Shown: positions 1,301 through 16,767, numbered from the stretch's first letter. The stretch is 64,000 nt of DNA from an uncultured Nitrososphaerota archaeon (GCA_963703285.1 OY969807.1:192001-256000), one strand, 5' to 3'. The notes: generated by a model from the sequence alone, not told the origin. A program made the numbers and translations.

Positions 1301-1395
1301 GCCCCGGTAGTGTAGCCCGGTCAAGCATGTTACCCTCTCGTCGATTAGTTCTCGGGAGATAGGTAGCGACGTGGGTTCAAATCCCGCCCGGGGCA
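1301..1395 (+). tRNA. tRNA-Glu(CTC) with a 20-nt intron (1341-1360) at the canonical 37/38 position
   Basis: Acceptor GCCCCGG/CCGGGGC+A, anticodon stem TTACC/GGTAG, loop CT-CTC-G|A, T-loop GGTTCAAATCC. The intron can form a bulge-helix-bulge (CTCT/GGAG central helix, CGA/TCG outer helix). Confidence 0.93.
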
Positions 1396-1482
1396 TCCCT
1401 ATTCAATTGAGCACGAAATCTTCCGCCTCGGGAGGGGATTTGAACCACAAAGTTGGAGATTTGAACCTAAAGTGACGTGCCC
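1382..1482 (+). repeat. att-like copy 1: tRNA-Glu 3' end plus ~85-bp cassette left end
   Basis: 101 bp matching 5187-5287 with 6 mismatches by manual alignment. Confidence 0.95.
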
Positions 1483-4400
1483 CCCTCAGGAAATTGTGAG
1501 CGGGCCAGAGGGATGCGCCTAATGTCCTGAGCGAATACATGGAAACCCCATGTTGTCTCGGGCCTGGGTTCGTATCGGAAAATTCGTCCGTTTCCGCTTG
1601 TGACTTCTCTAATGATACTGGGACAACACTGGCGCATGACCCTGTTCGCGTAAGATTAATCGAAGGCGGCTCGTTCCAAGGCCATGTTGCGCCCTCTGGT
1701 TCAGATGTCCGTTTTGCGATTTTCTCGGGCGCGCACTATCCGGCGATTACTTGCGGCTCATCTAGGAACCCTCGTTTTGATTCGCGTTCCAAACGTCATC
1801 ACCATCAACCAGAAACCGCTAAGCAGTCGCCAGCACGAACCGGACAGGGGGAAGCGGAGACTCTTGAGTGCCTGCAGTGCCTTCACGCAAGTGTGAGATT
1901 TGAATCACTCAATCCCTTGGCTCCGCCTACCCGTCTCAGGATGCGATCCCTTACATCGATTATGCCGACGTTTCCGTGCGGGCAAGCCTCGACGCAATCA
2001 CCGCAACCGACACATGAGATTCTGTTGGAGTACCCCTTCCTGAGAAGGTCGGCGACAAGCGGGACGGCGATAGGACATGAGGTCTCACACTCTCTTGTTT
2101 CACATCCTGCACAGATCGATGTGTCATTTGCCCGGATTCTGAAGAACGCCTTGTTGAAGATACCCGATAGAGTTCCGAAGCCGCACCAGCCCTGCCTGGC
2201 GCAGCTGTATGCGCCGAAAGCGGGGGTTAGGAAATAGAAGACCCACCAAACGTAGTTCAGAACGAACATCCCGTAGAAGTCGAGCGGGTTGATTGTTATC
2301 ATGCCAATCACTATCGGCGAGAGGAACCCAGTCTCCTGCAGAGCGAACGCCCCAAACGAGAGGACCATCAAAGAGAAGGAGAGCCACCTTAGGAAGCCCC
2401 AGACGCGAGGGTGGTCTCCCGAGGGTTTGAACTGGTCGTAGTATTCATTCGTCCACATGTGCGCCGCCATGCACACGAGGTTGCACTGCGCCCGCCTTCC
2501 GAAAAGTACGGATGCGGCGATGATGGCGCCGATTGATACGATGAATAACAGAAGCGGAACTGAAAAGATCATGTCGCTCATGCCGAATACGTAGAATGGA
2601 GTGTAGAATGGTATCAGGACAACGAAGAGGGGGATTCCAACGATGATAGCCAAGGCCCAGTTTCTAACCCTCCTGTCTCCTGCGAATCTGTATCTCTGAA
2701 GAACCAGATAGCTCATCTCGGACCCCATCATAATGACGTAGAAGGGTGACATCGTGGTCATCATTGTGAGCGCGAATGAGGACCAAAAGTACGCGAAGGG
2801 TGTGCTCACGCTCAACCCCATCTGGAAAGCCATCACGCTCATCTTTGCGGGATTCCAGGGGAAGAGCCACCACAGGGGGTTGCTGAGATTCATGGGCCCG
2901 GACAAGTTAAGTCCTAACAGGGAAGTCGTGGCGGTTCCCGGGAAGATGGAAGTGGTGATCGACAGGCCGATGGAGGTCGCGGCGAAGCTCATGGCGAGTT
3001 CGGCTCCGTTGATCAGCACCAGAAGCAGGAAGCTGCTCGAACGGTACCACGAAACCGATCTGGAGTCCAATCTCTGGGTCACGAGAAAGAAATAGGCTAC
3101 CATTGAGACAACCATGGCGGCTGAAAGCAAGGCGAAGCTGTTGTAGATCGCATAGAACGAAAGGCCCAGCATCATCAGAAGGTCCGAGGCGGCGAGGCCC
3201 ATCGCGAGTGCCTGGGCGTCGAACGTTCTTCTTCTCATCTGAAGCAGATAGAGGAGCACGATGTTTGCCATCATGACGCCTGCAGAGACGATTATGCTGA
3301 TCAGAACGTACTCATCACCAAAACTGGCGAAGAAGTTCGGCATCAGGACCATGGACAGAGCGAATGTGAAGAGGCTCGCTTGAGGAAGGTCTCTCTTCCT
3401 GTCCGAGATTAGCAGAAAGAAGAGCGCGTCGCCTGCCATCATCACAGCGAAGTCAAGATTGTTGACCGAGATCAGGAGTGGTGAGGAGTTGTGAGGAAGG
3501 AACGCCGACCCGTAGAGGAATCCCATGGAGAGCTCGAAAAGAGCTAGAGCTATCACCAGAGGGATTGTGTACTTGAAATGCCTCCTCCACTCCTGGATTT
3601 CGCCGCGCGCTAATCGCGGAACGAGAAGGACCGCTCCAGAAGCGACGAGGACCGAAGCGCCGAGCAGGAGACTGCCGCCCCAGAAGAGGAGATAGGAGAT
3701 GATGACGGTGACGACGCCCAGGTAAAGAGTGACCGCGAGCGAGAGAAAGTAGAGCCTTGACTGTATCTGGTCTCTCCTGAACATCAGGTAGATAAAGAAG
3801 AACCCGACCATCATCATGTCCACTACGAAGAAATCCATCAGGACCTCCTCGAATGGTCCCGTGAAGAATTTCAGAACCCCGCCCATGAAGAACTCTGCGA
3901 CGAAGATTCCCCCCAACAGCGCGGGAGCCCAGAGCGGCTTGTTCTGCCACCCAATCAGCGGGGGATTGGTGAGCCGCTTCTCGTCGAGCACTATCGTGAA
4001 GTAGATTGACATCTCTGCGACTATCGACAGGACGAACAGGAGGACATCACCGTTCATGAGCCAAAGGAACAGCCCCGCCATCATGAGGCCGTACGTGCCC
4101 ATGAGGCTCACGATGTACTTCGAAGCGCCATCAGTCGTGGGGCGGTTCATGAAGACGTAGTATAGCGCGACGATCATTGCGATGGTCATCACCGTGCCGT
4201 TTCCGATCAAACTGCTCCAAGACCACGTCGTGCTCGCTATTGCGGTGGGAGATAGGACCATGACGACGGTCTGGATTGCGACGAGCCATCGGAAGATGCT
4301 CGGGAAGTTCCTCCCCACTAGGAAGAGCGTGACGGCCATCTCGGAGGCCATGGTGAAGATGAACCAATAGGTGCCCATCGAGTCAATGAGCGCCCAGAAG

Positions 4401-5202
4401 GCGCTCCCGGAGGTCGACGCGGCGCCGGAGAGGATCGCGAAGGTCCAGCCCATGAAGACCTCGGAGAGAATCGCGAGACAAATCACAGAGGAGATCGCTA
4501 TCGTCCTGCTGGAGATCGCGCGGCTTTCGCGCGTCTCGTCTATGGGCCGATCGCCTCTGATGAGAGCGCTGAGTATCGGGATTAGCCCGATGCTCATCGA
4601 TATCATGTTGAGCGCGACTAGCTCGAAGAGCATGACGATGCCTGGGAAGTAGAGGTAGACGACGGCGCTGGCGAACATCGACGCCATCATCACGAGGAGG
4701 AAGATGACGAGGCCTGCGTCCGACAGAGTCTTCATAGTAGACCCCTTCTTCAGCAGCCATGCTGTGAACACGGCCATCGAGCCGGCGATGAGCCATAGGA
4801 CTTCCGCACCCATGCTCTCCTATCAGCACTCGGTCGAGGCTACTGGAAGCTGTTTTAATACATAATGTCCGATGTGGCGACGGGGTCTCTGTCTTCCCCA
4901 CGGGGGAAGGGCGGAGTCATCGGGGGCACAGCCCTGGCCTTCACGCTGCCCGTCTACATCTACACGCTGGCTCGATTCCGCACCTCGCAACCTCAATGAA
5001 GCTCAGGCTCTCGCTCAGAAGACGAGGGAACCGGCATCGCACCCAGGATAGAACGGAGCCTTTGCGGGGTTTTCTCTATCACGCTAGGGATGTCTTCTTC
5101 TTTGGGAGTTCAGAGTGATGTCTCGCGAATAGCGGCTGGGCGCAGGGTTCGTAGGGCCCGGAGGGGATTCGAACCTAAAGTCAGACTCCCGCCCGGGGCA
5201 TC
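1398..5202. mobile_element. Integrated cassette 1 at tRNA-Glu (no integrase seen)
   Basis: Bounded by direct repeats of the 16-bp tRNA 3' end (1382-1397, 5187-5202). Shares both terminal motifs with cassette 2. Confidence 0.75.
1883..4813 (-). CDS. Polytopic membrane protein with a C-terminal 4Fe-4S (NapH/FoxG-like) domain; possibly a fusion of two related units
   Basis: 976 aa with many TM helices. Cys motifs QCNLVC, SCARQGWC, CAGCETRECETSC, CVGCGDCVEACP. Confidence 0.8.
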   Translation of the reverse strand: MGAEVLWLIAGSMAVFTAWLLKKGSTMKTLSDAGLVIFLLVMMASMFASAVVYLYFPGIVMLFELVALNMISMSIGLIPILSALIRGDRPIDETRESRAISSRTIAISSVICLAILSEVFMGWTFAILSGAASTSGSAFWALIDSMGTYWFIFTMASEMAVTLFLVGRNFPSIFRWLVAIQTVVMVLSPTAIASTTWSWSSLIGNGTVMTIAMIVALYYVFMNRPTTDGASKYIVSLMGTYGLMMAGLFLWLMNGDVLLFVLSIVAEMSIYFTIVLDEKRLTNPPLIGWQNKPLWAPALLGGIFVAEFFMGGVLKFFTGPFEEVLMDFFVVDMMMVGFFFIYLMFRRDQIQSRLYFLSLAVTLYLGVVTVIISYLLFWGGSLLLGASVLVASGAVLLVPRLARGEIQEWRRHFKYTIPLVIALALFELSMGFLYGSAFLPHNSSPLLISVNNLDFAVMMAGDALFFLLISDRKRDLPQASLFTFALSMVLMPNFFASFGDEYVLISIIVSAGVMMANIVLLYLLQMRRRTFDAQALAMGLAASDLLMMLGLSFYAIYNSFALLSAAMVVSMVAYFFLVTQRLDSRSVSWYRSSSFLLLVLINGAELAMSFAATSIGLSITTSIFPGTATTSLLGLNLSGPMNLSNPLWWLFPWNPAKMSVMAFQMGLSVSTPFAYFWSSFALTMMTTMSPFYVIMMGSEMSYLVLQRYRFAGDRRVRNWALAIIVGIPLFVVLIPFYTPFYVFGMSDMIFSVPLLLFIVSIGAIIAASVLFGRRAQCNLVCMAAHMWTNEYYDQFKPSGDHPRVWGFLRWLSFSLMVLSFGAFALQETGFLSPIVIGMITINPLDFYGMFVLNYVWWVFYFLTPAFGAYSCARQGWCGFGTLSGIFNKAFFRIRANDTSICAGCETRECETSCPIAVPLVADLLRKGYSNRISCVGCGDCVEACPHGNVGIIDVRDRILRRVGGAKGLSDSNLTLA

Positions 5203-5287
5203 CCTATTCGATTGAGCACGAAATCTTCCGCTTCGGGAGGGGATTTGAACCACAGAGTCGGAGATTTGAACATACAGTGACGTGCCC
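5160..5287 (+). repeat. att-like copy 2 (junction): right-end motif, 16-bp core and left-end sequence, i.e. a complete attP-like site
   Basis: GGGATTCGAACCTAAAGTCAGAC (5164-5186) matches 13109-13131; 5187-5287 matches 1382-1482. Confidence 0.95.
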
Positions 5288-5420
5288 TAAGCTGACTGTG
5301 AGCGGGATCGACGGCAATCGTCAAGCATACTTCCATCAGATGGAATCGAATGAACAGGATGATGGGCCGGAAGGGATTCATCGGGATGTCCGTATTGAAC
5401 CCCTTTAGGTTCTGCGAAGT

Positions 5421-5711
5421 CTACACCAAGCTATTTCCTCCCTCAGCCGCTCCAACTCGCCGTGGTCTCCCCTCGCCCCCTTCCTGCGGCTCTGGGTTCT
5501 CATCCGCCACCAGCCAATCACTTTCGCCCCGCTCGACTGCTTCCTCACTCCCGAGGCGCTTGAGGATGCTCTCAGCCCTGCGCCTATGGTACTCGTCAGG
5601 GACGGAGTAGGTTATGCCCGCTATCGCCACCGCTTCTATCAGCGAGACGCACATTTCTTCGTCGACGAACCCTATCCCCTGAACGAGCTTCGCATGCGCG
5701 ACGGATATCAT
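5421..5711 (-). CDS. Small hypothetical protein
   Basis: 96 aa, ATG preceded by GAGGAGG, divergent from the 5803 gene across an AT-rich spacer. Confidence 0.55.
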   Translation of the reverse strand: MISVAHAKLVQGIGFVDEEMCVSLIEAVAIAGITYSVPDEYHRRRAESILKRLGSEEAVERGESDWLVADENPEPQEGGEGRPRRVGAAEGGNSLV

Positions 5712-5802
5712 GGCGTACCTCCTCTTTCCATCCCTCCCCTGAATAACATACCAAATAGGTTCAGTAATGATTTTATTTACGGGCGCAACCGCGGCTTATC
5801 AA

Positions 5803-6429
5803 ATGGTTAGGACCAGTATCGCCGTCGATAAGGCGATTGCTGACTCCCTAGCGGGGGAAGCGGCAAAGCAGAACAAGACTCTCTACGGGCTCGCTAACGA
5901 GTCTCTCGCCGATGTCCTGAAGATATGGAAGGAAGGGGGCTCGAGCAGGGATATATTCTCATCTTGGAGCTTCGGCCGAATCCTCAAGGAGACCGATTCT
6001 CTCCCGGTTCCTGGTCCTCTAATAGAGAAAATTGTGAGGAGGATGCATTCGATAGACAGCAAGTGGTTACTGAATGCTATGTTTGATGAGGGGGTGAACA
6101 TTGGATCCTACCTGAAGCTGCGCTTCCCAGATTTCCAAAACTTGATTCCGATTTTGTTTGACCTGCAGGCATTTCTCCCGGTTAAGAGGGTTGAGTTTGA
6201 GCGGATCAGTCCAATTACAGATAAGATGATAATATCCATCCGTATCCTGGGAGCGGGTCCCTCTCCTGAGTCGACAGAATGCGCAGAGCAATTCCTCAAA
6301 GGTCTATTGTCACAGTATCCCTACAGAATAACTGATACAAGAGTTACCGAAGGCATCATTGAGGTTACAGTCACGAATGAGGAAGGAGAGCGAGACTCAG
6401 GAGGCTACATCAAGACCGGGTTGATTTAG
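5803..6429 (+). CDS. Hypothetical protein with an N-terminal ribbon-helix-helix-like segment (putative regulator)
   Basis: MVRTSIAVDKAIADSLAGEAAKQNKTLYGLANESL has a strand-helix-helix pattern; AT-rich codon usage. Confidence 0.6.
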   Translation: MVRTSIAVDKAIADSLAGEAAKQNKTLYGLANESLADVLKIWKEGGSSRDIFSSWSFGRILKETDSLPVPGPLIEKIVRRMHSIDSKWLLNAMFDEGVNIGSYLKLRFPDFQNLIPILFDLQAFLPVKRVEFERISPITDKMIISIRILGAGPSPESTECAEQFLKGLLSQYPYRITDTRVTEGIIEVTVTNEEGERDSGGYIKTGLI

Positions 6430-7009
6430 CAAATCGCTCCTTCTCATCACTTCCCCAAGATAGGTACTCTGCGCGTATCGGGTGAGACGAGATGGCTCTG
6501 ATTTCATGACCTCCTATTTGGACCACTTGCACAATTACGAAGCAGATGAATGGATGTTAGCAACTTCACCATGCATCAAATCTGGAAGGCGCACAGGAAA
6601 CAGCCACACGGGGACAGGAGGGCAAAACTGAGTGAAGATGATTGTCACCTGCATAGACGAGAAGAACGGGATACGGTCCCTCGATAGGAGCGAGACTATC
6701 CTTCCCTTGCGTCCCGTGATGCCTCAAGGCATACCCTAGGATTAGAAGCGCGGGGACGAATAGGCCTATTGACGACCCTGAACGTACTCGACGGCACTGT
6801 CGACAAGGAAAGGCAAGGGAGTTCACATTCTTAAGAGCCAAGCCGATGCCCTCCGACAAGAGTTTCCTCTGCGCGACCTGCTTCTCCTCATCAGTTCTGG
6901 ACGACGAAGCGCAAGGGTATCAACAAGTAGCAACAAACGTGCAAACATGTATACGCCAACCCGAATGGGTTCGGGCAAATGCACATAACATGTAGACAGA
7001 GTTAGACAA

Positions 7010-7804
7010 TTGTTCACATTGACTGAAAACAAGGAGCGAAGGAAGTCTGTATCTGTTTCTCAACCTGAGAAAATAGCTACCAGGCCTGTCAGAACGACAG
7101 GCGGTGTAATTCAAGACGTCGCAAATACCAAGGTGAGCAGACGGGCCCTGATGAAGGGCACCGCGGCCGCCGCCGTGGTCGTTGGCGTCTCTACCTTTGC
7201 CATGAACGCACCTAAGGTCAAGGAACAGGGATCCTCCGCTTCCTCGACCTCTTACGTCACGATATCCCCTACACAAAGCGTCACGACCACCATTGCCCCG
7301 CCGGCGCCGACAGTGGCGGCAACTCCATTTGACGCGCGAACGATTACGCTCAACGTCAATGGTACGGACTATACCCCTACCGTGGAACCTAGGAGGATGC
7401 TCGTCGACGTGCTTAGAGAGGACCTCGCCCTGATAGCGACGAAGAAGCCGTGTGACAGGATGTGCTGCGGAGGATGCACCGTCTTGATTGATGGCGTGCC
7501 GCATGAATCGTGCACAATCTTGGCAGTGAGGGCAGTCGGCCATACCATCGTGACTTCAGAAATCACCACGGGTGACGCAGTGGTGAACGCCCTGCAACAA
7601 GCCTGGGTAACGGCGGATGGGGGTCAGTGCAGCTACTGCGCGTCGGGTCAGATAATGGCCGCCACATACCTGCTGAAGACCAATACGAACCCGACGGTCC
7701 CTGAGATCAAGGCCGCATTGAGCGGTAACATATGTCGATGTGGAAACTATCTGCACATAATCGAAGCGGTACAGTCTGCCGCGGCGAGTCTAGGAGGTGC
7801 CTAG
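7010..7804 (+). CDS. Xanthine dehydrogenase-family 2x[2Fe-2S] subunit with a twin-arginine signal (PaoA/YagT-like); start uncertain
   Basis: SRRALMK followed by a hydrophobic stretch and an S/T/P linker; CDRMCCGGC...SC, QCSYC...CRC. Confidence 0.9.
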   Translation: MFTLTENKERRKSVSVSQPEKIATRPVRTTGGVIQDVANTKVSRRALMKGTAAAAVVVGVSTFAMNAPKVKEQGSSASSTSYVTISPTQSVTTTIAPPAPTVAATPFDARTITLNVNGTDYTPTVEPRRMLVDVLREDLALIATKKPCDRMCCGGCTVLIDGVPHESCTILAVRAVGHTIVTSEITTGDAVVNALQQAWVTADGGQCSYCASGQIMAATYLLKTNTNPTVPEIKAALSGNICRCGNYLHIIEAVQSAAASLGGA

Positions 7805-7808
7805 AGCG

Positions 7809-10283
7809 ATGAGCTCTTCCGTAGGTTCAAACGTAGGAACGGGCAACGGTCCCTTCAACCTGGTAGGAAAGTCTACGGTCAACAGACGCGCCACCTACAA
7901 CCAGATTACAGGTGTGCGAGTGAACCAGAGCGACATCCTTCCCGTTCACGTCGGGGCCTCGGCCTTCGTCTACATGGGCTACGTTACCTGCCCATACCCT
8001 AACGCGATGATCAAGAGCATTGATGTTAGCGCGGCGGAGGCGGCCGGAGCCCAGACGCTATCTGCCCTGGACACGGACTACCTTCCAGCATTCAATTACT
8101 ACTCCACCGCGAACGGCAGAAACCGGGGACCCCTCCCCTACCCCCAGTGTATGTACTCGGGCCAGCCCGTGGTCGCGGTCGGGGCTGCCACCCCAGACCT
8201 GCTCAACGACGCAATCAACCTGGTCAAGGTTGAATATGAGCCTCTCCCATACGTCTTCGACGCGGAGGGAGCGCTGGCGCCGGGCGCGCCTGTACTATGG
8301 CCAGGCGGCAACTCTCCAAATGGGGCTGCCGGCATAGACAACGGATATCCGCCGAGTGTGGCGGCCATCTCTTTCGGTGACGCGGCCGCAGCCATCGAGG
8401 CGGCCGACGCGGTCGTCACGCTCCCAACGCTGGACACTCAATTCGTCCAGCACTTCACGACCGAGCCCCGAGGGCTTGTCGCAGAATGGACAGCCAACGG
8501 CGGGGTCAATATCTGGAGCGACACCCAGTATGCCGCCTCCATACCGGCCATGATCTCCGCCTACTTCATGATACCGGCGGCCGACGTAGTCTGCAGAACC
8601 AACCTCGGTGGAGCCGACACAACAACGGGAAGCTGCGTTGTGGGTTGCGCCACCGGCAACAAGGTGTCTGGCGAAGAGTACATCACAGCGGTGGCGCTCT
8701 CGAAGAAGGCAGGGTCGCCTGTGAAATTCCTCAACACCAGATTCAATGACTCACTCGCCACAACTGCCCGCTTTCCGCAGCGCGCCTACGTCACGATTGC
8801 CGGGACGAGCGCCGGAAAGATTACGGCGGTGAAGGCCTCCGTGTACACGAACGAAGGTGCGCTCGCCGGCGAGGATAATGAACTCAGCGAGTTCTACGCG
8901 AGCTACACCATTCCGAACGTCGACCTCGTGAGCTATTCTGCCAACACCAACGGATACGGCCAATCCGGTGCTATGCGCGATGTCGGCGAAAGCCAGTGCT
9001 CATTCTTCATGGAAACGGCTGTCGACATGCTTGCCGAGAAGCTGAACATAGACCCCGTGACATTCCGGCTCAACAACATGATAACAACGGGTTACACCGA
9101 CCCGGCCACAGGGACGGTCTACCCCAACACCGCGTTCGACCCCAGCACCGGACAAGCGTTCTCCGGATTCAGCGAGCCGGCCATCCAACTCAAGACAGCG
9201 GCGGCCTTCAACTGGAGCGGCAGATGGAAGGGCTGGGGAGTACCGAGCGGTACACCAATCAACTCTGGCGAAACCCAAGGTACAGGCCAGAAGCTGCGAG
9301 GGGTCGGCGTATCGCTGCTCTCTGCAAACAAGGGTAGCTTTGCGTACGGCTCGGGCCAAATCTCGGTCGATCCCACGGGCGCAATAACGGTCTACTCAGG
9401 GATAATGGACCACGGAGGCGGAGGAAACACGACCATACCGCTGATCGCTGCAGAGTGCCTTGGTCAGACAGACTTCAGCAACATGACTGTCGTCATGTCA
9501 GACAGCTCCCTCACGACCGACACACTGGGCACGTTCGGTAGCCTGGGGACGCGCGACGGAGGCATGGGCCAAGTCGTGGCCGCCCAGAATCTTGCGAGCC
9601 AGTGGTTCCCGATCGTCGCCGCCAAGCTAGCACCCGGGACGCAGCCGGCCAACCTCGCGTTCGGGACCAACACGATCTACGACACGACAAACCTCAGCAA
9701 CTCGATGTCGTTCAAAGCCGCGGCCGCTCTCCTCCCCGCCACGATTACAGGCAACTCGGGGTTGGTGTTCGGGCCTTTCAACCTTACGTACCGCGTCGGC
9801 GGCACGAAGATGTGCGAAGTCGAGGTGGACACGGAGACCGCGGACGTCCGCGTGATAAACGCGACGTGCGGAATTGGTCTCGGTCGCGTTATCTTCGCGC
9901 GTGGCGCGGAGGGCCAGGTCCAGGGTGGCTTCATAGGACACGGGATAGGCGAATCACTCACCGAAGAGCACATAAACGACTCGTCAACCGGGCTCAAGTA
10001 CTCCGGAGGCGCCCTTAACGCGAACTTCCTTGACAACAAGGTACCCACGATAACGATGGCGCCCGACACTCTGACCCCCGTGTATGAGGAGTACGTCGAC
10101 CCAGTTGGGCCCTTCGGCGCAACCGGAATCGGGGAGCCCTGCCTCATTGGCGCCATACCGTGCATCCTGAACGCCCTGAGCAACGCACTGGGCGGGTACA
10201 GGTTCACCAAGACCCCGGTGAGGAAGGAGGACATCGTAACGGCGCTGCAGTGGATGGAGACGAACCGGAAGCTCCCATCATAG
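7809..10283 (+). CDS. Xanthine dehydrogenase-family molybdopterin-binding large subunit (PaoC-like)
   Basis: VEYEPLP, EPRG, IDPVTFRLNN, EVEVDTET, GQVQGG, GPFGATGIGEP. GGAGGTG SD precedes ATG 7809. Confidence 0.92.
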   Translation: MSSSVGSNVGTGNGPFNLVGKSTVNRRATYNQITGVRVNQSDILPVHVGASAFVYMGYVTCPYPNAMIKSIDVSAAEAAGAQTLSALDTDYLPAFNYYSTANGRNRGPLPYPQCMYSGQPVVAVGAATPDLLNDAINLVKVEYEPLPYVFDAEGALAPGAPVLWPGGNSPNGAAGIDNGYPPSVAAISFGDAAAAIEAADAVVTLPTLDTQFVQHFTTEPRGLVAEWTANGGVNIWSDTQYAASIPAMISAYFMIPAADVVCRTNLGGADTTTGSCVVGCATGNKVSGEEYITAVALSKKAGSPVKFLNTRFNDSLATTARFPQRAYVTIAGTSAGKITAVKASVYTNEGALAGEDNELSEFYASYTIPNVDLVSYSANTNGYGQSGAMRDVGESQCSFFMETAVDMLAEKLNIDPVTFRLNNMITTGYTDPATGTVYPNTAFDPSTGQAFSGFSEPAIQLKTAAAFNWSGRWKGWGVPSGTPINSGETQGTGQKLRGVGVSLLSANKGSFAYGSGQISVDPTGAITVYSGIMDHGGGGNTTIPLIAAECLGQTDFSNMTVVMSDSSLTTDTLGTFGSLGTRDGGMGQVVAAQNLASQWFPIVAAKLAPGTQPANLAFGTNTIYDTTNLSNSMSFKAAAALLPATITGNSGLVFGPFNLTYRVGGTKMCEVEVDTETADVRVINATCGIGLGRVIFARGAEGQVQGGFIGHGIGESLTEEHINDSSTGLKYSGGALNANFLDNKVPTITMAPDTLTPVYEEYVDPVGPFGATGIGEPCLIGAIPCILNALSNALGGYRFTKTPVRKEDIVTALQWMETNRKLPS

Positions 10284-10297
10284 GAGAGTGGATCGAA

Positions 10298-11335
10298 ATG
10301 AGAAACGAACTAAACCAATTCGGATACCTGGTGCCGACCTCGGTTGGCGACGCGGTATCACTCCTGACGAAGTATGGAGGGAACGCGAGAGTCATCGCTG
10401 GTGGGACGGACCTGCTCTACCTGATGAAGAACCAAGTGGATACGCTGACACCGGAGTACGTGGTAGACATCTCGGGGCTCGGACTCGACGAAGTAGAGTT
10501 CAGCCAGAGCGCCGGCCTGACCATCGGAGCGACCGCGAACGTCCTCACAATCTCGAATGACCCGAACGTCAACCAGTACTATGGTGCGATCGCAGGGGCG
10601 GCCACGGGCCATCCAAACCAGATAGCCAGTCAGGCCACCGCCGGAGGGGAAATCTCACAGGAAGTGTGGTGCTGGTACCTGCGTAACAACTACGACTGCT
10701 GGAGGAACGGCGGGAACGTCTGCTATGCGGTCGCCGGAGACAACCGTTACTACCACAGCATCTTCGGAGGCAACCTCTGCTACGCGGTCCACGCTGGCGA
10801 CCTGACGACGGCGCTCTTCGCGCACGACGCCACTCTGACGGTGCAGGGTCCGGGAGGCTCGAGCAAGATGACGATGGACCAGTTCATGCCGGGCGTCACC
10901 ATAGTGGACGGCCGCGTCAAGGAGAACAGCCTCCGCTACAACGAGATAGTGACCCAGATCAACGTGCCTACGCCCGCGTCAGGGACGCTCAGCACGTTCT
11001 TCAGGATGACCGACAGAGCCGCCATCGACTTCCCATTGGCGAGTGCGGCTGTCGTCGCGACGACCAGCGGGAGCACAATCTCCAGCGCCAGGGTGGTGGT
11101 GGGCCACGTCGCCAACAAGCCTATCAGGGCATCCTCGGCAGAATCCTACCTCGCCGGAAAGACACTCCCTCTGTCAGAGGACGTCATTGCGCAGGCGGCG
11201 AAGAACGCCCTGTCGGGCGCCACACCACTGACGCACCAGAGCGTCGGGGCGAACGGCTTGGGTCAGGGGAACGCGTTCCGAGTATTCATCGCGCAAGGAG
11301 TGGTGAAGAACGCCCTGCGGGCCCTGAACTCGTAG
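10298..11335 (+). CDS. FAD-binding medium subunit with a 4Fe-4S insertion (PaoB/YagS-like)
   Basis: IAGGTDL motif; WCWYLR..DCWRNGGNVCYA...LCYAVH Cys cluster. Confidence 0.9.
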   Translation: MRNELNQFGYLVPTSVGDAVSLLTKYGGNARVIAGGTDLLYLMKNQVDTLTPEYVVDISGLGLDEVEFSQSAGLTIGATANVLTISNDPNVNQYYGAIAGAATGHPNQIASQATAGGEISQEVWCWYLRNNYDCWRNGGNVCYAVAGDNRYYHSIFGGNLCYAVHAGDLTTALFAHDATLTVQGPGGSSKMTMDQFMPGVTIVDGRVKENSLRYNEIVTQINVPTPASGTLSTFFRMTDRAAIDFPLASAAVVATTSGSTISSARVVVGHVANKPIRASSAESYLAGKTLPLSEDVIAQAAKNALSGATPLTHQSVGANGLGQGNAFRVFIAQGVVKNALRALNS

Positions 11336-11340
11336 AGTCG

Positions 11341-11604
11341 ATGGCTCTGAGTTCGGCTCCAAGCGGCCTTCCAGTCAGAGAGCAGGGTGAGCCGGAGGAC
11401 CTTGCTCTCTCCGAAATTTTCGAGAGACACAAGAATACATGGGTGGCGATGACAGTTACCGGAAGGGACAGGAACTTTCAGCCAACAAGAGGTAGGGTGC
11501 TGGCGACCGACTTGGACCAGTACAAGCTGAGGCAGAAGATTTTGAAATACGCCGACATCTGCATCCTCTATGCTGGTGAACCTCAATTCCCTCTGTTCCT
11601 TTAA
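11341..11604 (+). CDS. Small DUF5678-like protein
   Basis: 87 aa, HKNTWVAM...GRVLATDLD pattern, upstream of retropepsin-like genes. Confidence 0.55.
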   Translation: MALSSAPSGLPVREQGEPEDLALSEIFERHKNTWVAMTVTGRDRNFQPTRGRVLATDLDQYKLRQKILKYADICILYAGEPQFPLFL

Positions 11605-11615
11605 CTTCTTCTTGC

Positions 11616-12052
11616 ATGCCCATTATCAGAAGACCTCTTCTGTAGGTCTCCGACAATATTTGTGCGCGATAGGGGCCGCAACGACAGCGTGAGAGAGTCT
11701 AACGCGCCGGCCGATGTCGGCCCCGAGTACTGTGTCATGCCTAGAGTCGACGCCCACCAGCTCGGCTATCGAGAGGCCGCGCTCGATACCCGATAACGCC
11801 CCCCCCCGCCAACGCAGTAACCTTTTCAAGCAATACCGGGGATTACACGGCGGCAAGATTAAGATGGCGCGGGTGGACCCGGGAAGTGTGTCCTTCAGAG
11901 ATGTCGACCTTGTCGCCCCTCATCCTCCTCAGGTGACCGGATTCGACGTCATACTAGTACAGAGCCTGTTGAAGTTCATGAAGCTTGAATTCGATTGTTC
12001 GGTTGGAAGGTTGAGGATAGAAGAGTTAAGAAAGAAGAGTGTGGAACCGTGA
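11616..12052 (+). pseudogene. Frameshifted retropepsin-like (clan AA protease fold) gene, paralog of the next gene
   Basis: Pieces in different frames: PTIFVRDRGRNDSVRESNAPADVGPEYCVMPRVDAHQLGYREAA aligns with PMLVTVRVEGQNGRVRELSSVIDFNAPYCMVLFQDGIDLGYPEAA. The C-terminal piece is GFDVILVQSLLKFMKLEFD. Confidence 0.75.
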
Positions 12053-12546
12053 GATTCGCTCTAAAGTATCCCATGTTGGTAACCGTTCGAGTAGAAGGTC
12101 AAAACGGTCGTGTGAGGGAGTTGAGCTCGGTCATCGATTTCAACGCGCCATACTGTATGGTCCTTTTTCAAGATGGGATAGACCTTGGTTATCCCGAGGC
12201 GGCCAATAAACCTGTCAACTTGGGGCGGATCCACCCTGATAGGGTGCCTTGGTTTACCACCATGCGTGGTATAGAGCGAGGCATCTTAGTGACTCTGAGC
12301 AAGGTGTCGCTCGGTAGCTTGGTTGCGGAGAACGTGGACGCTGTGGTGCTCGAACTGGCACATCCACGCTTCCACACGTTCGAGATGATTCTGGGCCGGA
12401 CATTCTTGAAGAATTTCAAGCTCACAGTTGATATGAAGAATGGAAAGGACGGTTACCTTTCTCTGCTCCCGTCAGGAAAGAGGCGACCTGGTCCGCCAGC
12501 CCCCTCCCACCCCGAGATTCAACGGATGAATGCCCGAAGCGAGTAA
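12049..12546 (+). CDS. Retropepsin-like (clan AA aspartic protease fold) protein with a non-canonical active site
   Basis: VIDFNA in place of IDTGA; ILGRTFL motif; GTGA overlap with the upstream pseudogene. Confidence 0.75.
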   Translation: MRFALKYPMLVTVRVEGQNGRVRELSSVIDFNAPYCMVLFQDGIDLGYPEAANKPVNLGRIHPDRVPWFTTMRGIERGILVTLSKVSLGSLVAENVDAVVLELAHPRFHTFEMILGRTFLKNFKLTVDMKNGKDGYLSLLPSGKRRPGPPAPSHPEIQRMNARSE

Positions 12547-13104
12547 TTTTGCAGTGAGGGGATTCCAGCAGGTTGCGCCCGCGTAGCTCCGCAAACACAG
12601 TAGTCGAGGCCGACAAGGGTTACTGCGACGGGCCACTCATGTAGACGGTACGGGCGATTCGGCAGGGTACAAACAAAGTTCTGAAAGACAGCATTGACGC
12701 TACGAGCAAGTCACGCAGCTCCCCGTAGAACAGAGGTGATTCAGCTCACCGCCAATTGGATCGCACCCGTAGCTCCAATCCATCCTGCACCGCTGGCTGA
12801 GTGAGAAGAATCTGTCGGAGATATGAGGGTCCTGAACTCGACCAAGCCATGCTCAGGATTTGATCCTCGCCGCATAACCCCTCCAACAGTCTTCGCCTCT
12901 TCATTTCCAGATTCATCACGTGCTTCTCGAGCGACGGTTCCTCAGCCTCCCGGCGACCGCACTTAACCCTGGGAATCAGCATGGGACGCTCAAAATTCTA
13001 AGCAAGCCTCTTCTGGCCCGCGCAGTACTCCTGGCGATTTCCACCTTGCCCGAAGTCGTTGTCTCAGTGTAATTCGAAGGGGCTCTTTGCAGGTTACTGC
13101 GCAA

Positions 13105-13147
13105 GGAAGGGATTCGAACCTAAAGTTGGACTCCCGCCCGGGGCATC
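13105..13147 (+). repeat. att-like copy 3: right-end motif plus 16-bp tRNA-Glu 3' core
   Basis: GGAAGGGATTCGAACCTAAAGTTGGAC-TCCCGCCCGGGGCATC, followed by unrelated sequence with a T-tract (likely the native tRNA trailer). Confidence 0.93.
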
Positions 13148-13292
13148 TCGCCACCATTTCAAGCGTTTTTCAGCCGTAAATCAGTCTCCTGCAGTTGCCC
13201 GAGTCGCGGATCAATCGGCCAGGCGTAACCCAGCGATCTCCCTGTTACAAAGCCATAAATTGACCGCGCTGCGACGTGTGTAAGGTTCCGGT

Positions 13293-13577
13293 ATGTGGAA
13301 AATCGAGTGCCCCAACTGCCACCATCTCTTCAGCGTGGTGACAGAAGAGAACAAAGACTTGATCGATGATGAGAAGGCGGAGGACATCAAGGAGAACTCC
13401 CACGAACGCGTGGAAGACGCCCTCGAGAATCTGGTCCCGTACAGCAGACGCGTCCCTGGATCCTTCGGCAAGGAGGTCGATGTGGACGACCTTACCTACG
13501 AATACAAGTTCAAATGCAAACATTGCGGCTTCGAATGGACCGAACTCAAGGAGAAAGAGCGAGTAGCGAAGGAGTAG
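13293..13577 (+). CDS. Small Zn-ribbon protein
   Basis: CPNC...CKHC, 94 aa, TATA-like ATAAAT upstream. Confidence 0.75.
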   Translation: MWKIECPNCHHLFSVVTEENKDLIDDEKAEDIKENSHERVEDALENLVPYSRRVPGSFGKEVDVDDLTYEYKFKCKHCGFEWTELKEKERVAKE

Positions 13578-13628
13578 GCCGGGTGCACGCGACCCCGTCT
13601 GCCGCTAGAAACGCCGACCGGGGTGCCT

Positions 13629-14117
13629 TTACCGCGGAGCTTCCCTTGCAGGAGGGAGGTTTCGAAGCTCTTGCAGGGCCCAGTTGGCGTTGCGAAGTCT
13701 CTTCGCCAGCGTACGGATCACTTCTATTGCGACGTCTGGGTTCTTCCTGAGGAACGCGTAGAACGCGGGTCCCTTGATGCTCAGGCAGGTCGTCTGCTCG
13801 ATTGGGACGATGTCCGCGCTTCTCCCTGTCTGGTACTCGTCCAGGAACGCCATCTCCCCGAAGAATTGCCCCTTCCCAAGCGCGGCGATCACCCTGCTCT
13901 TCTTCCGGACTTCCACCCTGCCCCGCAGGATGATGTATAGCTCGGCCAGCAGGGAGCCGTCCTTGACCATCACCTGGCCCGGAGCGTAGGTCTCCTCCCT
14001 CGCGTCGCGCAGCAACGCCTCCAAGCTCCTTTTCTCCAGGTCGTGCAGTATAGGAACCTGGCGCAGGAGATCTACTACCCTGTCTTCCTCGCGCTTGTTC
14101 TGAGGTCTGGTCCCCAT
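13629..14117 (-). CDS. Cyclic-nucleotide-binding domain protein
   Basis: LYIILRGRVEV...LGKGQFFGEMAFL...RSAD motif, no HTH. Confidence 0.9.
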   Translation of the reverse strand: MGTRPQNKREEDRVVDLLRQVPILHDLEKRSLEALLRDAREETYAPGQVMVKDGSLLAELYIILRGRVEVRKKSRVIAALGKGQFFGEMAFLDEYQTGRSADIVPIEQTTCLSIKGPAFYAFLRKNPDVAIEVIRTLAKRLRNANWALQELRNLPPAREAPR

Positions 14118-14208
14118 CCTCTCCCTGAATCGCAGCCTGCTACGTGCTTAAGCTTTGGCAGAGAATTTGCAGTCTTCCCTGGCGGGGCCGCAGGGAGGTG
14201 CAAGTCGC

Positions 14209-14400
14209 TTACTGAGTGTTGTTACCGCGCTTCCGCCTCTTCGCCTTCTCTCGTTCGTCCTCCTTCTCCTCTATCTTCTCGACCTGAAGCTCCTCCTTCT
14301 GCCCGACGGTCTCCTTCGAAATCTCCTCGCTCTCCTCCGCTCCCTCGGGCTTGACCGGTCCCTCCTCCTCAGCCGCCCCGCCGTTTTCCTTTGGACTCAA
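14209..14400 (-). CDS. Small charged (Glu/Lys-rich) hypothetical protein
   Basis: 63 aa, TTG start preceded by GGAGG, TAAATA upstream. Confidence 0.5.
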   Translation of the reverse strand: MSPKENGGAAEEEGPVKPEGAEESEEISKETVGQKEELQVEKIEEKEDEREKAKRRKRGNNTQ

Positions 14401-14434
14401 CCCGCCTCCGGCCCCCTAGGCGAATATTTATGCG

Positions 14435-15070
14435 ATGAAGAGGCCGCGGCGCCGCGTGCGACGTACGCCTACCAGAGAAGCCACCCCTCATGGAGCCCTG
14501 GGCATCACCGGCACCCCCGGGGTGGGCAAGAAGTCCGTCTCCCGCCCTCTTGCGGCGATTCTGGACGCGCCCCTCCTCGAGATCAGCGGCCTTGCGAGGG
14601 AGCACTCGACCCCCGACGAGCATGGCGAGCTTCTGGTCGACGTCAGGGAGGTGCGCTCGGCGCTCTCCCGTCGGAACCTCTCGGGGACGATCGTCACGGG
14701 TCACCTCCTCGCGGACGTCCTGGGTCGCTCCAAGGCGGGATTCGTGGCCGTCCTGAGGTGCAAACCCGAGGTCCTCAAGAGGAGGCTCGCCTCGAGGGGC
14801 TACCCCGCCGAGAAGGTCATTGAGAACGTCGAGGCCGAGCTGATCGGGGTGGTCCTTGACGAGACCGTCCGCCGGTTCGGCTCCGGGAAGGTCCACGAGT
14901 ACGACTCGACCCGCGCCAGCCCGGCATCCCTGGCCAGGAGGATAGCGCGAGACTACCTGGAGGGCTCGGCCCAGTCCGCGCCCTGGATCGACTGGACCCT
15001 CGACTACGACTCCTCGACGAGGTTGACATCCCTCCTCTCCAAGCCGAGGACGGGGCCTGCGTCCACCTGA
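14435..15070 (+). CDS. Atypical adenylate kinase (AK6/Fap7-like); start uncertain
   Basis: GITGTPGVGK P-loop, VLRCKPEVLKRRLASRGY..EKVIENVEAE. Confidence 0.88.
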   Translation: MKRPRRRVRRTPTREATPHGALGITGTPGVGKKSVSRPLAAILDAPLLEISGLAREHSTPDEHGELLVDVREVRSALSRRNLSGTIVTGHLLADVLGRSKAGFVAVLRCKPEVLKRRLASRGYPAEKVIENVEAELIGVVLDETVRRFGSGKVHEYDSTRASPASLARRIARDYLEGSAQSAPWIDWTLDYDSSTRLTSLLSKPRTGPAST

Positions 15071-16767
15071 ACGAGTATCGGGCTCTGCAGGCGGGTGAGG
15101 CTGACCACGGCCTCCCCGACTCCCAGGGAGGAGACGTGGGCCAGCTGCTCCTTCCCTAGGTTGAGCGCCTCGCCGATAAGCCTCAGGTCCTCGGCCCAAG
15201 AGGTCCTGTGGATTATCCTGACCCCCGAGTTCTTGATCACTTCGGAGGCGACCTGTGTCGGAAACTGCGCCACGAAGATCATGGCCTCGCCGAACTTCCT
15301 TAGCTCCGAGATCATCCTCTCGCCGACGCTCGGCGGGTCCTCCTCCCTCCTCGCGGGTGCCACGTTCCGTGCCTCCTCGACGACCAGGAGGTGCTCCATC
15401 CTCCCCCTCCTGGACACCCTCGATTCGTAGATCACCTTGAGGAGTATGTCGACGAAGACGCTCCTCGTCTGTATGTCCCTTATCTGCCCCAGCTCGATCG
15501 AGAGCACCTTGTCGAGCATCTCGTCGATGGTATGGCTGGACGGTCCGTTGAGGGCCCTGCCGACCTGCCCCTCGGTGAGCGGCACGAGCCGTCTCAGGAG
15601 CGCGACCTTGGTCTCGTTGTCGTAAGCCGACCTCAGGGGGTATCCCTCGATCACCTTGACGAGCGAGGAGAGGGTTGGAACCTCGCGCTCAGAAGCCTCG
15701 CCCAGGCACTTCTGCAGCGCATTCCTGAACATGTACGCCTGGGGGTGAGTGAAGTGGTAGATGTCCGAGAATATGTCCGTGGTCATCGCGATGTGCTCCA
15801 CGGGGTCGGTCGAGGACCCCATGTCGAGCGGGTTGACGGTGAACTGGTCCTTGCCCGGCGAGAAGACCTGCCCGCCGACTGACCTTATGAGGTCTGCGTG
15901 CTCGTTGTGCCAGTCGAGGACCATCAGGGGCAGGCCCATCCCTGCCACCTGCCTGACGATCACCGACGCGCTCGTCGACTTGCCGGCGCCCGTCGCGCCC
16001 AGGATGGCCGTGTGCCTCCTGAGGTCGTCGAGCTGCAGCCTGAAGTCGTGGGAGGTGCCCGAGCGCGTCCTGACCTTGCCGAGCAGTATCCCGCTCGTCC
16101 CTGACTCGGCCGCGTTCGGGACGTAGAAGTCGGGTGCTCCGTGGCCAGGCTGGACGGAGGGGCTCCGCCCCTCGAAAGACTCCAGCCTGCTTATCGTGGA
16201 GGCGTCGGCGACCTGGGTGAGCTTCGGCTCGCTCGGCTGGAGGAGGTTCTGCGCGAAGTCCTTCAGCTCGTTTCTTGTGAGCCTCCTGACCGACGAGTTG
16301 GGGACGCCGACCGCGAGTGTGGCAGCGAGGACACCCGTGTTCTGCTCCATGGTCGCCATCGCGTCCGCGGCCCTCTTCGCCTTCACGTCCATCCAGGTCC
16401 CCACCACGAGGTCGAACTCGAAGACCTGGTTGTTCTCGTCGCCCTGCTCCGAGGGTTTGACGAGTATGAGGTAGAGGAAGGGTATCTTCGACCTGTGTAG
16501 GCCGTCGAACAGCCCCTTCATGCGCTGCTGCTGGAGCGTGATCCTAACGGCCGTCGAGTAGTCCAGCTTCGAGTCGTCCACCGTCTCCCCGAGGCCTATC
16601 CTCAGCATGGACATCAGCCTCGAGCTGTCTCCCTTGGTGAAGGCGAGGTAGCGGCCGTCCACGACACCGATGGAGTCTATCTTGAGCGGGACGGCGTTCC
16701 TGACCTTCCACTTCATCCTGGAGAAGATCCCGCCGCCCTCTCCCTCGCCGTCCACCCAGCTCACCAC
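15004..16767 (-). CDS. HerA/VirB4-like (DUF87) ATPase
   Basis: RRHTAILGATGAGKS, LDWHNEH, LVVEEA, ELRKFG, AQFP motifs. Confidence 0.88.
   Translation of the reverse strand: MVSWVDGEGEGGGIFSRMKWKVRNAVPLKIDSIGVVDGRYLAFTKGDSSRLMSMLRIGLGETVDDSKLDYSTAVRITLQQQRMKGLFDGLHRSKIPFLYLILVKPSEQGDENNQVFEFDLVVGTWMDVKAKRAADAMATMEQNTGVLAATLAVGVPNSSVRRLTRNELKDFAQNLLQPSEPKLTQVADASTISRLESFEGRSPSVQPGHGAPDFYVPNAAESGTSGILLGKVRTRSGTSHDFRLQLDDLRRHTAILGATGAGKSTSASVIVRQVAGMGLPLMVLDWHNEHADLIRSVGGQVFSPGKDQFTVNPLDMGSSTDPVEHIAMTTDIFSDIYHFTHPQAYMFRNALQKCLGEASEREVPTLSSLVKVIEGYPLRSAYDNETKVALLRRLVPLTEGQVGRALNGPSSHTIDEMLDKVLSIELGQIRDIQTRSVFVDILLKVIYESRVSRRGRMEHLLVVEEARNVAPARREEDPPSVGERMISELRKFGEAMIFVAQFPTQVASEVIKNSGVRIIHRTSWAEDLRLIGEALNLGKEQLAHVSSLGVGEAVVSLTRLQSPILVQVDAGPVLGLERRDVNLVEES

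Follow-up and report, generated by a model that had tools for sequence, protein, structure and literature searches.

Two blocks of genes without an integrase lie in tandem behind tRNA-Glu(CUC) in the genome of an uncultured soil archaeon of the Nitrososphaerota, and they belong to a family of cassettes with conserved, standard ends. The array was found in a stretch of 64,000 nucleotides (GCA_963703285.1 OY969807.1:192001-256000; hereafter the window). Integrase-less blocks behind archaeal tRNA genes are usually dismissed as dead remnants. The family described here is present in two genera and in independent metagenomes, a relative has an empty site, the cargo varies from species to species and one module is found at two tRNA genes. 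We favour, with a probability of roughly 55%, the interpretation that the cassettes are non-autonomous elements resembling the bacterial cis-mobilizable elements (CIMEs), made and moved in trans by a tyrosine integrase that acts on tRNA ends, and now stranded in G000. The idea that archaea have a non-autonomous mobile element that works thereby becomes testable. The genome under study (G000) is a single contig of 2.25 Mb with no N and 60.6% GC. Positions are those of the window unless they are called genome positions, which refer to G000.

The integration target is tRNA-Glu(CUC) (1301-1395, + strand; ARAGORN; 46.8 bits with the Rfam tRNA model). It contains an intron after the anticodon, which is 20 nt in G000; the gene has no intron in the ten related genomes compared. 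The 16-mer TCCCGCCCGGGGCATC, referred to as the core, is found on the + strand at 1382, 5187 and 13132 and nowhere else in the window. Approximately 0.13 matches are expected by chance, and three copies were reached in 0 of 100 shuffles. Core copy 1 (1382-1397, +) extends from the last T-loop base to 2 nt beyond the tRNA end. It is followed by the L arm (1398-1512, +; nhmmer E 1.6e-29), in which an arm motif, GGRGATTTGAACC..AAAGT, appears twice (1434-1453 and 1455-1474). This arm is 82% identical to the L arm of tRNA-Glu(UUC). Core copy 2 (5187-5202, +) is followed by a long form of the L arm (5203-5376, +), which closes with the inverted 3' end of another tRNA (5362-5376) and is 90% identical over 141 nt to genome 963638-963778. 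The first two core-L units (1382-1482 and 5187-5287) share 94% identity, with 6 mismatches in 101 nt. Core copy 3 (13132-13147, +) is the distal end of the array.

The second and third cores are each preceded by an R arm (cassette 1, 5160-5186, +; cassette 2, 13105-13131, +). The R arm of cassette 1 has one arm motif, which ends 11 nt before the core. Together with their cores the R arms (5160-5202 and 13105-13147) are 93% identical over 43 nt. The layout is tRNA-core-L-cargo 1-R-core-L-cargo 2-R-core, with blocks of 3.8 kb and 7.9 kb, and core copy 2 forms the middle of a complete, attP-like R-core-L junction (5160-5287). As in elements that target tRNA genes, a direct repeat of the tRNA 3' end stands on both sides and an intact tRNA is rebuilt. 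An earlier description of the window (the sequence-only reading) had claimed the three core copies, 6 mismatches in 101 nt between the first two core-L units, this layout, standardised ends and the R-core-L junction. Pattern search and alignment reproduce all of these, with arm identities of 93-94%.

The same ends are found in related archaea. We compared 97 genomes of the family including G000 (22 congeners and 55 members of a second genus, g22), many of which are incomplete. An L match was present in 11 of the 97, G000 among them, with 5 of the 22 congeners and 5 of the 55 g22 genomes represented. In every case read the core tracks the tRNA-Glu of the host itself, being TCCCACCCGGGGCA in G001 and CCCCCCCGGGGCA in g22. 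In G001 a complete R-core-L junction follows a further 2 kb downstream. In g22 the L arm is conserved over approximately 190-300 nt, with two copies each in G096, G097 and G098. Seven metagenome contigs carry the L pattern, with an identical spacing between Glu core and L in all of them. tRNA-Glu(CUC) precedes the site in three cases and tRNA-Glu(UUC) in one; the remaining three are non-tRNA junctions. No integrase homologue was found on these seven short stretches, and no exact match to the L pattern was found in viral contigs. The L-bearing contigs of G001, G096, G097 and G098 have no PF00589 match at E<=0.1; the sole match on the L-bearing contig of G009 is weak (E 0.007) and approximately 285 kb away. 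In another soil run (X2), a contig of 151 nt joins R (13105-13145) to core-L (1384-1430) with 90% likeness. This contig may represent the tandem junction of a relative rather than a circle.

The flanks of the array, TatD-histone-tRNA-Glu(CUC) on one side and kinase-HerA on the other, are syntenic across the genus. An empty site of the kind envisaged by the sequence-only reading is present in the congener G002, where TatD, histone and tRNA-Glu are followed by approximately 400 nt and then by the kinase and HerA genes. The tRNA-to-kinase distance is thus about 0.4 kb in G002, with no L and no second core. L is also missing at distances of 1.3 kb (G014), 1.6 kb (G008 and G018), 4.2 kb (G011) and 6.4 kb (G017), and is present in G001 (6.6 kb), G009 (7.6 kb) and G000 (13.0 kb). 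The site turns over, with different cargo in each L-bearing genome compared. The tRNA-Glu(CUC) cassette of G009, which contains S10, TBP and Cdc48, is 89% identical over 5057 bp to the interior of the second cassette of another G000 array, located at tRNA-Glu(UUC). A homologous cargo module is therefore found in L/R-bounded cassettes at different tRNA-Glu genes in two species.

Several other identities were considered for the L arm and rejected. Rfam finds only tRNAs in eight loci, and 14 copies folded as a consensus give -1.9 kcal/mol for the + strand and -1.0 for the - strand, so that neither a known nor a structured RNA is indicated. A small protein gene was suggested by a 'CPNCG' frame in g22, which ends after 13-180 codons in seven copies and is an unstable open reading frame (ORF). 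L is also not the native trailer of the tRNA, being absent behind tRNA-Glu(CUC) in G002, G008, G011, G014, G017 and G018.

The array at tRNA-Glu(UUC), here called array B, answers the question raised with the sequence-only reading of whether the ends recur elsewhere: L and R surround other cargo there. The tRNA (genome 980675-980765) has an intron in the D arm and is missed or miscalled by ARAGORN. Array B is on the minus strand and begins with tRNA-core-L at genome 980688-980558, followed by 17 kb of cargo. At the junction (genome 963784-963674) the R motif is joined directly to the second half of L with no core, and from its sequence this junction looks like the product expected if the R motif had been fused to the first L motif by a deletion of what lay between them. 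The distal part consists of 7.6 kb of cargo and an R-core at genome 956142-956100. The two arrays have no flanking gene in common. With an nhmmer model built on 14 L copies, only four L arms are found in the 2.25-Mb genome, all of them at the two tRNA-Glu arrays. The arm motif, written as ATTYGAACC.RAAG, has 13 matches in the genome; approximately 3.6 are expected, a figure that comes from five shuffles of one 500-kb segment and applies to a loose pattern. Ten of the 13 matches are at att-like ends (seven in the tRNA-Glu arrays, one in an element at tRNA-Leu and two at another tRNA). The tRNA-Glu(UUC) locus of G009 was tried as the empty site of array B and rejected, as it holds 22.7 kb of unrelated DNA and an L remnant.

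The cargo of array B is likewise metabolic, with a dehydrogenase cluster, NrfD and 4Fe-4S proteins, and it adds second copies of Cdc48, TBP and ribosomal protein S10. Two segments have close copies outside the array: 4193 bp are 95.8% identical to genome 2093906-2098092 (the dehydrogenase cluster), and 3962 bp are 93.3% identical to genome 1239049-1243002 (the S10-TBP-Cdc48 block). A separate observation concerns the copy number of these genes. TBP and Cdc48 each have at least three copies in the genome at 90% protein identity or more, and S10 has three, with 98% and 80% identity to the array-B copy. The sites are genome 958120-962074, 1239049-1243002, 112915-113469, 130678-132844 and 1864078-1864428. 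The whole S10-TBP-Cdc48 block is present twice, with 93% DNA identity, and one of the copies is within a tRNA-Glu cassette. Just upstream of tRNA-Glu(UUC) there is also a TnpB-like fragment (Cas12f1-like TNB domain; genome 981576-981998, -), with copies of approximately 72% identity at genome 153455 and 630371.

The sequence-only reading called for a search of the genome for tyrosine recombinases, and a six-frame scan with PF00589 gave one match, at genome 1627363-1628601, which is 1.43 Mb from the array. PF16795, the archaeal-phage integrase model, has no match in the genome, and there is one small resolvase-like frame at genome 685876-686262. Within the window the claim that the blocks contain no recognisable integrase, replication or transfer gene held, as Pfam finds none of these domains in the 16 ORFs within or across both blocks. 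As in CIMEs, the blocks are flanked by att sites and have no recombination, replication or transfer genes; some of their ORFs belong to no family. No integrase encoded by the element itself was found by Pfam on the ORFs of both arrays, by genome scans or by tblastn, and no serine or tyrosine recombinase is near either array. An integrase remnant, named in the sequence-only reading as the mark of ordinary decayed islands, was not found in either array by tblastn with the Leu and Glu integrases described below (best E 1.7).

The single tyrosine integrase belongs to an element of 7.7 kb at tRNA-Leu(CAG) (genome 1627269-1635070), which has the 16-nt repeat TCCCACCCCCCGCACC at both ends and also encodes an AAA/FtsK-like ATPase. 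The integrase has 412 aa, with a SAM-like N-terminal part, a catalytic domain and a zinc ribbon, and starts 8 nt after the tRNA. The repeat starts at the last T-loop base, which is the same position as in the tRNA-Glu core. Just upstream of the distal core of the Leu element is GATTCGAACCCGAAG, which is close to the R arm of the cassettes, GATTCGAACCTAAAG, and to both L motifs. Relatives of the Leu element in other genomes are behind tRNA-Leu(UAG) or tRNA-Leu(GAG). The nearest relatives of the integrase (84-89% identity) are from Candidatus Gagatemarchaeum stordalenia and from metagenome-assembled genomes of uncultured Nitrososphaerota. Judging solely from the names of these relatives, the host is probably a member of the Gagatemarchaeaceae.

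Homologues of the Leu integrase are present in 41 of the 97 family genomes. They form a family of approximately 400-445 aa with a C-terminal zinc ribbon, normally encoded 8-12 nt behind a tRNA gene. Among 30 homologue loci, eight are directly behind tRNA-Leu, five behind a tRNA ending in ...CGACCGCACC or a close variant (tRNA Y), five behind an Asp-like tRNA with an interrupted T-loop and two behind tRNA-Glu(UUC); for the other ten no tRNA was seen in the 150 nt upstream. A separate PF00589 locus in G001 (C95) is behind tRNA-Trp. The tRNA-Glu integrase of G011 is 49.5% identical to the G000 Leu integrase, and its orthologues (81-96% identity) are directly behind tRNA-Glu(UUC) in G045, G008, G017 and G071. 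Those of G017 (internal stop) and G008 (match from residue 95) look disrupted. The G011 element is approximately 30 kb long and has the distal end GGGGATTTGCACCCGAAGATTTATCA followed by the core. It shares the core and the arm motif with the cassettes, and its integrase gene occupies the position that is held by L in the cassettes. The distance from arm motif to core is 11 nt in the L-type cassettes and 13 nt in the Leu element, the G011-Glu element and one tRNA-Y end. The genus therefore contains autonomous elements that share the target, the core and the arm motif of the cassettes.

According to the favoured interpretation, each cassette would once have been a circle with an attP-like site composed of the R arm, the 16-nt core and the L arm. 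A tyrosine integrase of the family would recombine R-core-L with the 3' end of tRNA-Glu. The crossover is expected to fall within the 16-nt identity that begins at the last T-loop base, so that the tRNA would be rebuilt and the core duplicated. A second insertion into the occupied site would then create a tandem array whose central junction is a complete R-core-L. In place of an integrase the cassettes carry the conserved non-coding L arm, and the motif of approximately 20 nt, with two copies in L and one upstream of the distal core, is probably a protein-binding arm site. The enzyme would be supplied in trans by a co-resident or incoming autonomous element. Because G000 has only a tRNA-Leu-specific member of the family, its four tRNA-Glu cassettes are probably stranded at present. 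The proposal in the sequence-only reading that non-autonomous cassettes are mobilised in trans is partly supported, by the standardised ends and the lack of an integrase, and is weakened by the specificity of the G000 integrase, which targets tRNA-Leu.

Two sets of observations favour this interpretation. The rebuilt tRNA, the core that tracks the host tRNA, the empty site and the crossover position and motif shared with integrase-bearing elements argue for a site-specific origin. The shared non-coding L (at least 14 copies in two genera), the lack of integrase remnants, the varied cargo and the module at two targets argue for a separate, non-autonomous lineage.

Other observations weigh against it. 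Neither an excised circle nor an emptied-site variant was seen in the assembled contigs of public runs, the cover of which is patchy. A tRNA-Glu-type integrase was not found in the genomes with a full L (G000, G001, G009, G096, G097 and G098), and conversely G011 and G045, with an intact tRNA-Glu integrase, gave no L match. G017 has a disrupted copy of the integrase and only a 30-nt L-like match. The majority of the genomes in this comparison are incomplete. The spacing between motif and core is 11 nt in cassettes and 13 nt in integrase-bearing elements, and the bases after the motif differ, so that the cognate enzyme may be an unseen member of the family. The L copies of the window differ at 6 of 101 positions, which indicates that neither insertion is recent. 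In array B one junction is missing the core and half of L, and the second cassette of G001 has no detectable distal core. These degraded junctions imply that at least some of the cassettes are dead.

The same signs of decay would be expected if the arrays were ordinary captured islands, that is, once-autonomous elements that lost their integrase after insertion, have been immobile since and now persist as fossils. The parts drawn on here of a 2021 review on tyrosine recombinases of archaea (PMC8371274) explain integrase-less elements by loss of the integrase and note tandem integration. The disrupted tRNA-Glu integrases of G017 and G008, the coreless junction of array B and the 6% divergence of the L copies fit such a history. 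Fossil islands are a possible, if doubtful, explanation because neither array retains an integrase remnant and the same non-coding L is found where autonomous elements have an integrase gene, 8-12 nt after the core. By-eye comparison reveals no evident likeness of L to the start of an integrase gene. Independent deletions would not yield one arm shared by 14 aligned copies in two genera, and a homologous cargo module at different tRNA-Glu genes in two species also speaks against immobility. The core, L and R could alternatively be nothing more than portable homology, with blocks swapped or added by homologous recombination and no site-specific enzyme involved. The hybrid junction of array B is compatible with an exchange between the R motif and the first L motif, the cargo segments with copies of 93-96% identity in the genome show recent recombination or duplication, and the exchange of modules between tandem elements is discussed in PMC8371274, in the parts drawn on here. 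However, arms of only 27 and 85-175 nt with 80-94% identity would be poor substrates. The duplicated core also begins at the exact T-loop position used by the integrase-bearing Leu element, and the arm motif is common to integrase-bearing elements. This position and the shared motif point to a site-specific origin, and homologous recombination as the sole process is unlikely.

The several cassette ORFs without a family, and the recurrence in cassettes of one family of 220-aa proteins, would suit a true integron-like platform, in which a dedicated and unrecognised recombinase at or near the tRNA-Glu loci shuffles the cassettes. Such a platform is very improbable: the conserved flanks contain only TatD, histone, the kinase-like gene and HerA, the two arrays share no flanking gene and have no serine or tyrosine recombinase nearby, and the 220-aa protein matches no recombinase family. 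An assembly artefact or chance repeat is the least credible explanation. The support for the array comes from assembled contigs and not from raw reads. Nevertheless, none of the 100 shuffles gives three copies of the core, the genome is one 2.25-Mb contig without N, and the same types of junction are found in independent assemblies, including the 151-nt contig from another soil run.

The interpretation of the cassettes as non-autonomous elements moved in trans can be carried further. Tentatively, and with considerable doubt, the L arm may define a dedicated lineage of archaeal hitch-hikers that traded the integrase for compact arm sites, is shuffled between the two tRNA-Glu genes by passing integrases of the family and would drive gene duplication. 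In the parts of PMC10640624 drawn on here, genome expansion in this archaeal family (Gagatemarchaeum) is ascribed to progressive gene duplication, and neither 'integrase' nor 'mobile genetic' occurs in the main text. The notable cargo of the cassettes consists of extra copies of TBP, S10, Cdc48 and molybdopterin dehydrogenase, some of them 93-96% identical to copies in the genome, which makes the cassettes a candidate mechanism for part of the reported duplication. If the hitch-hiker lineage were real, cassettes with the 95.8% dehydrogenase and 93% S10-TBP-Cdc48 copies would be a concrete engine of duplication in Gagatemarchaeum.

The sequence-only reading called the locus integron-like, and as a statement of membership this does not stand, since there is no array-linked recombinase, the ends are not of the attC type and the cassettes are multi-gene. 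An integron has an intI gene next to the array, an attI site, a promoter for the cassettes and attC ends, which are imperfect inverted repeats that fold, and its cassettes are mostly single promoterless ORFs. The likeness is that exchangeable units are stacked in order at a single site and that each of them has a standard end for recombination. In contrast to integrons, the arrays lack a linked intI, an attI, attC hairpins and a common promoter, and the units are multi-gene blocks of 3.8-17 kb. The ends are direct R-core-L repeats, and the fold of L (-1.9 kcal/mol) is no meaningful structure. The locus is not an integron; the nearer analogue is the CIME, which is flanked by att sites and stacked by repeated use of a tRNA site.

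CIMEs are known from accretion in tandem at the att sites of the ICEs (integrative and conjugative elements) and the IMEs (integrative and mobilizable elements) of streptococci. They are bacterial, are derived from conjugative elements and are thought to move with the integrase of a relative, their att arms matching those of a known co-resident ICE. Both CIMEs and the cassettes are att-flanked, have no recombination or transfer genes and are found in tandem with other elements at one site. The cassettes differ in that the host is archaeal, L forms a conserved non-coding unit by itself and no matching integrase resides in the same genome. She and colleagues, in 2001 and 2004, reportedly described gene capture in archaea by loss or partition of the integrase, including the 'suicidal' integrases of the SSV type. 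Common to both is that foreign blocks have become fixed behind tRNA genes, with repeats of the tRNA end at their borders. In the SSV type the integrase gene is split into two recognisable halves at the ends, whereas no such halves are present here. A split integrase was looked for in the end ORFs 1467-1637, 5181-5381 and 12990-13157 (all -), which belong to no family; PF16795 is absent and tblastn was negative.

In the same phylum, cryptic integrated elements of Thaumarchaeota have been surveyed (PMC6563490, Krupovic et al. 2019). The parts of that survey drawn on here give a median att length of 17 bp, place 57% of integrations in tRNA genes (intron-bearing ones included), attribute arrays to re-use of the site and report metabolic cargo. 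The short att, tRNA sites, arrays and metabolic cargo are all features of the cassettes; the surveyed elements differ in having been found partly via their integrase genes. A bacterial parallel is described in the portion of PMC3146451 used here: in Dehalococcoides, metabolic islands are site-specifically inserted at the 3' end of ssrA, where they are stacked, and have end repeats. In both systems metabolic islands adjoin the 3' end of a gene for a small stable RNA and that end is repeated; the difference is the bacterial host and the tmRNA site. Tandem arrays and integrase-less islands as such are already known (PMC6563490 and PMC8371274, in the parts drawn on here). In the portions of the literature searched, supplementary tables aside, we found no description of an archaeal integrase-less family in which a conserved arm replaces the integrase gene.

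The cargos of the two window cassettes share no nucleotide similarity, in agreement with the earlier description of them as unrelated. Cargo 1 is essentially one gene (1883-4813, -), which encodes a protein of 976 aa with a C-terminal 4Fe-4S dicluster domain (Pfam E ~1e-5, just under the curated cut-offs). Its tail is NapH-like and ferredoxin-like according to NCBIfam, and the nearest Atlas clusters are archaeal Fer4 proteins. Cassette 2 has at least seven ORFs in 7.9 kb. The first feature is a protein of 220 aa (5767-6429, +) without a match in Pfam or NCBIfam, which has five paralogues in the genome (tblastn), two of them in array B. It was considered as a hidden recombinase and rejected, having no Pfam or NCBIfam family and no recombinase match; by eye its N-terminus may resemble a ribbon-helix-helix regulator. 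It is followed by a molybdopterin dehydrogenase with three subunits (2Fe-2S, Mo-binding and FAD; 7010-11335, +; Pfam and NCBIfam), which belongs to the xanthine/CO-dehydrogenase family. Six paralogous clusters of this kind are present in the genome, at 199010, 772092, 950597, 968539, 1215621 and 2093907, with the same small accessory ORFs at each, and two of the six are within tRNA-Glu cassettes. Three small ORFs (11341-12546, +) complete the feature list of cargo 2. They accompany dehydrogenase clusters elsewhere in the genome, and the third of them shows a weak likeness to aspartic proteases. Two further ORFs, 1539-2237 and 6920-7543, look like antisense artefacts and were not accepted as genes. 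GC content is only a weak signal: the genome mean is 0.606, and the values run from 0.53 to 0.59 in cargo 1 and from 0.48 to 0.64 in cargo 2.

Cassette 2 retains the ends of two other tRNAs. The inverted 15-nt segment at 5362-5376 exactly matches the 3' end of one of them (genome 1085737) and is found at the same place in the array-B junction. Within cargo 2, 170 nt before R, the 15 nt at 12948-12962 (+) repeat, exactly and in direct orientation, the 3' end of the other (genome 1231171). The matching sequences suggest earlier recombination with elements of other tRNA specificity.

The left flank of the array (2-1114) consists of a TatD-like DNase (2-700, -) and an archaeal histone (893-1114, +), identified with Pfam and syntenic in nine related loci. 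The conserved right flank (14435-16767), assigned by Pfam and synteny, contains a P-loop kinase-like gene (14435-15070, +) and a HerA-like ATPase (15004-16767, -). Between the third core and this flank is a G000-specific stretch (13148-14434) with a Zn-ribbon gene (13293-13577, +) and a cNMP-binding gene (13629-14117, -), both identified with Pfam. The sequence-only reading took what follows core copy 3 for the native trailer. This has to be corrected, since synteny returns only at the kinase-like gene at 14435 and none of nine related loci has a homologue of the Zn-ribbon or the cNMP-binding gene in this place, which leaves at best a short stretch of native trailer. The segment may be an older insert without a recognisable far end. 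A fourth, degenerate core at 14531-14547 was rejected as a chance match because the kinase-like gene, which is conserved, contains it.

Elsewhere in the genome the 3' ends of other tRNAs are also repeated exactly over 15 nt, in each case from the last T-loop base onwards. They involve tRNA-Trp (genome 1332312 and 1336420, 4.1 kb apart), tRNA-Gln (177691 and 166322, 11.4 kb apart), tRNA-Leu(GAG) (1447623 and 1444766, 2.9 kb apart) and another tRNA with tandem repeats at 2145909, 2148860 and 2166081 (3 kb and 17 kb). Because the sole integrase of the genome is that of the Leu element, these look like more integrase-less islands. At tRNA Y an L-like motif follows the tRNA (genome 1231171, +), and its R motif plus core is located 26 kb upstream on the opposite strand (1205184, -). 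Such an arrangement is what an inversion between att sites would be expected to leave. Another dehydrogenase cluster is found in the intervening segment, 1205184-1231171.

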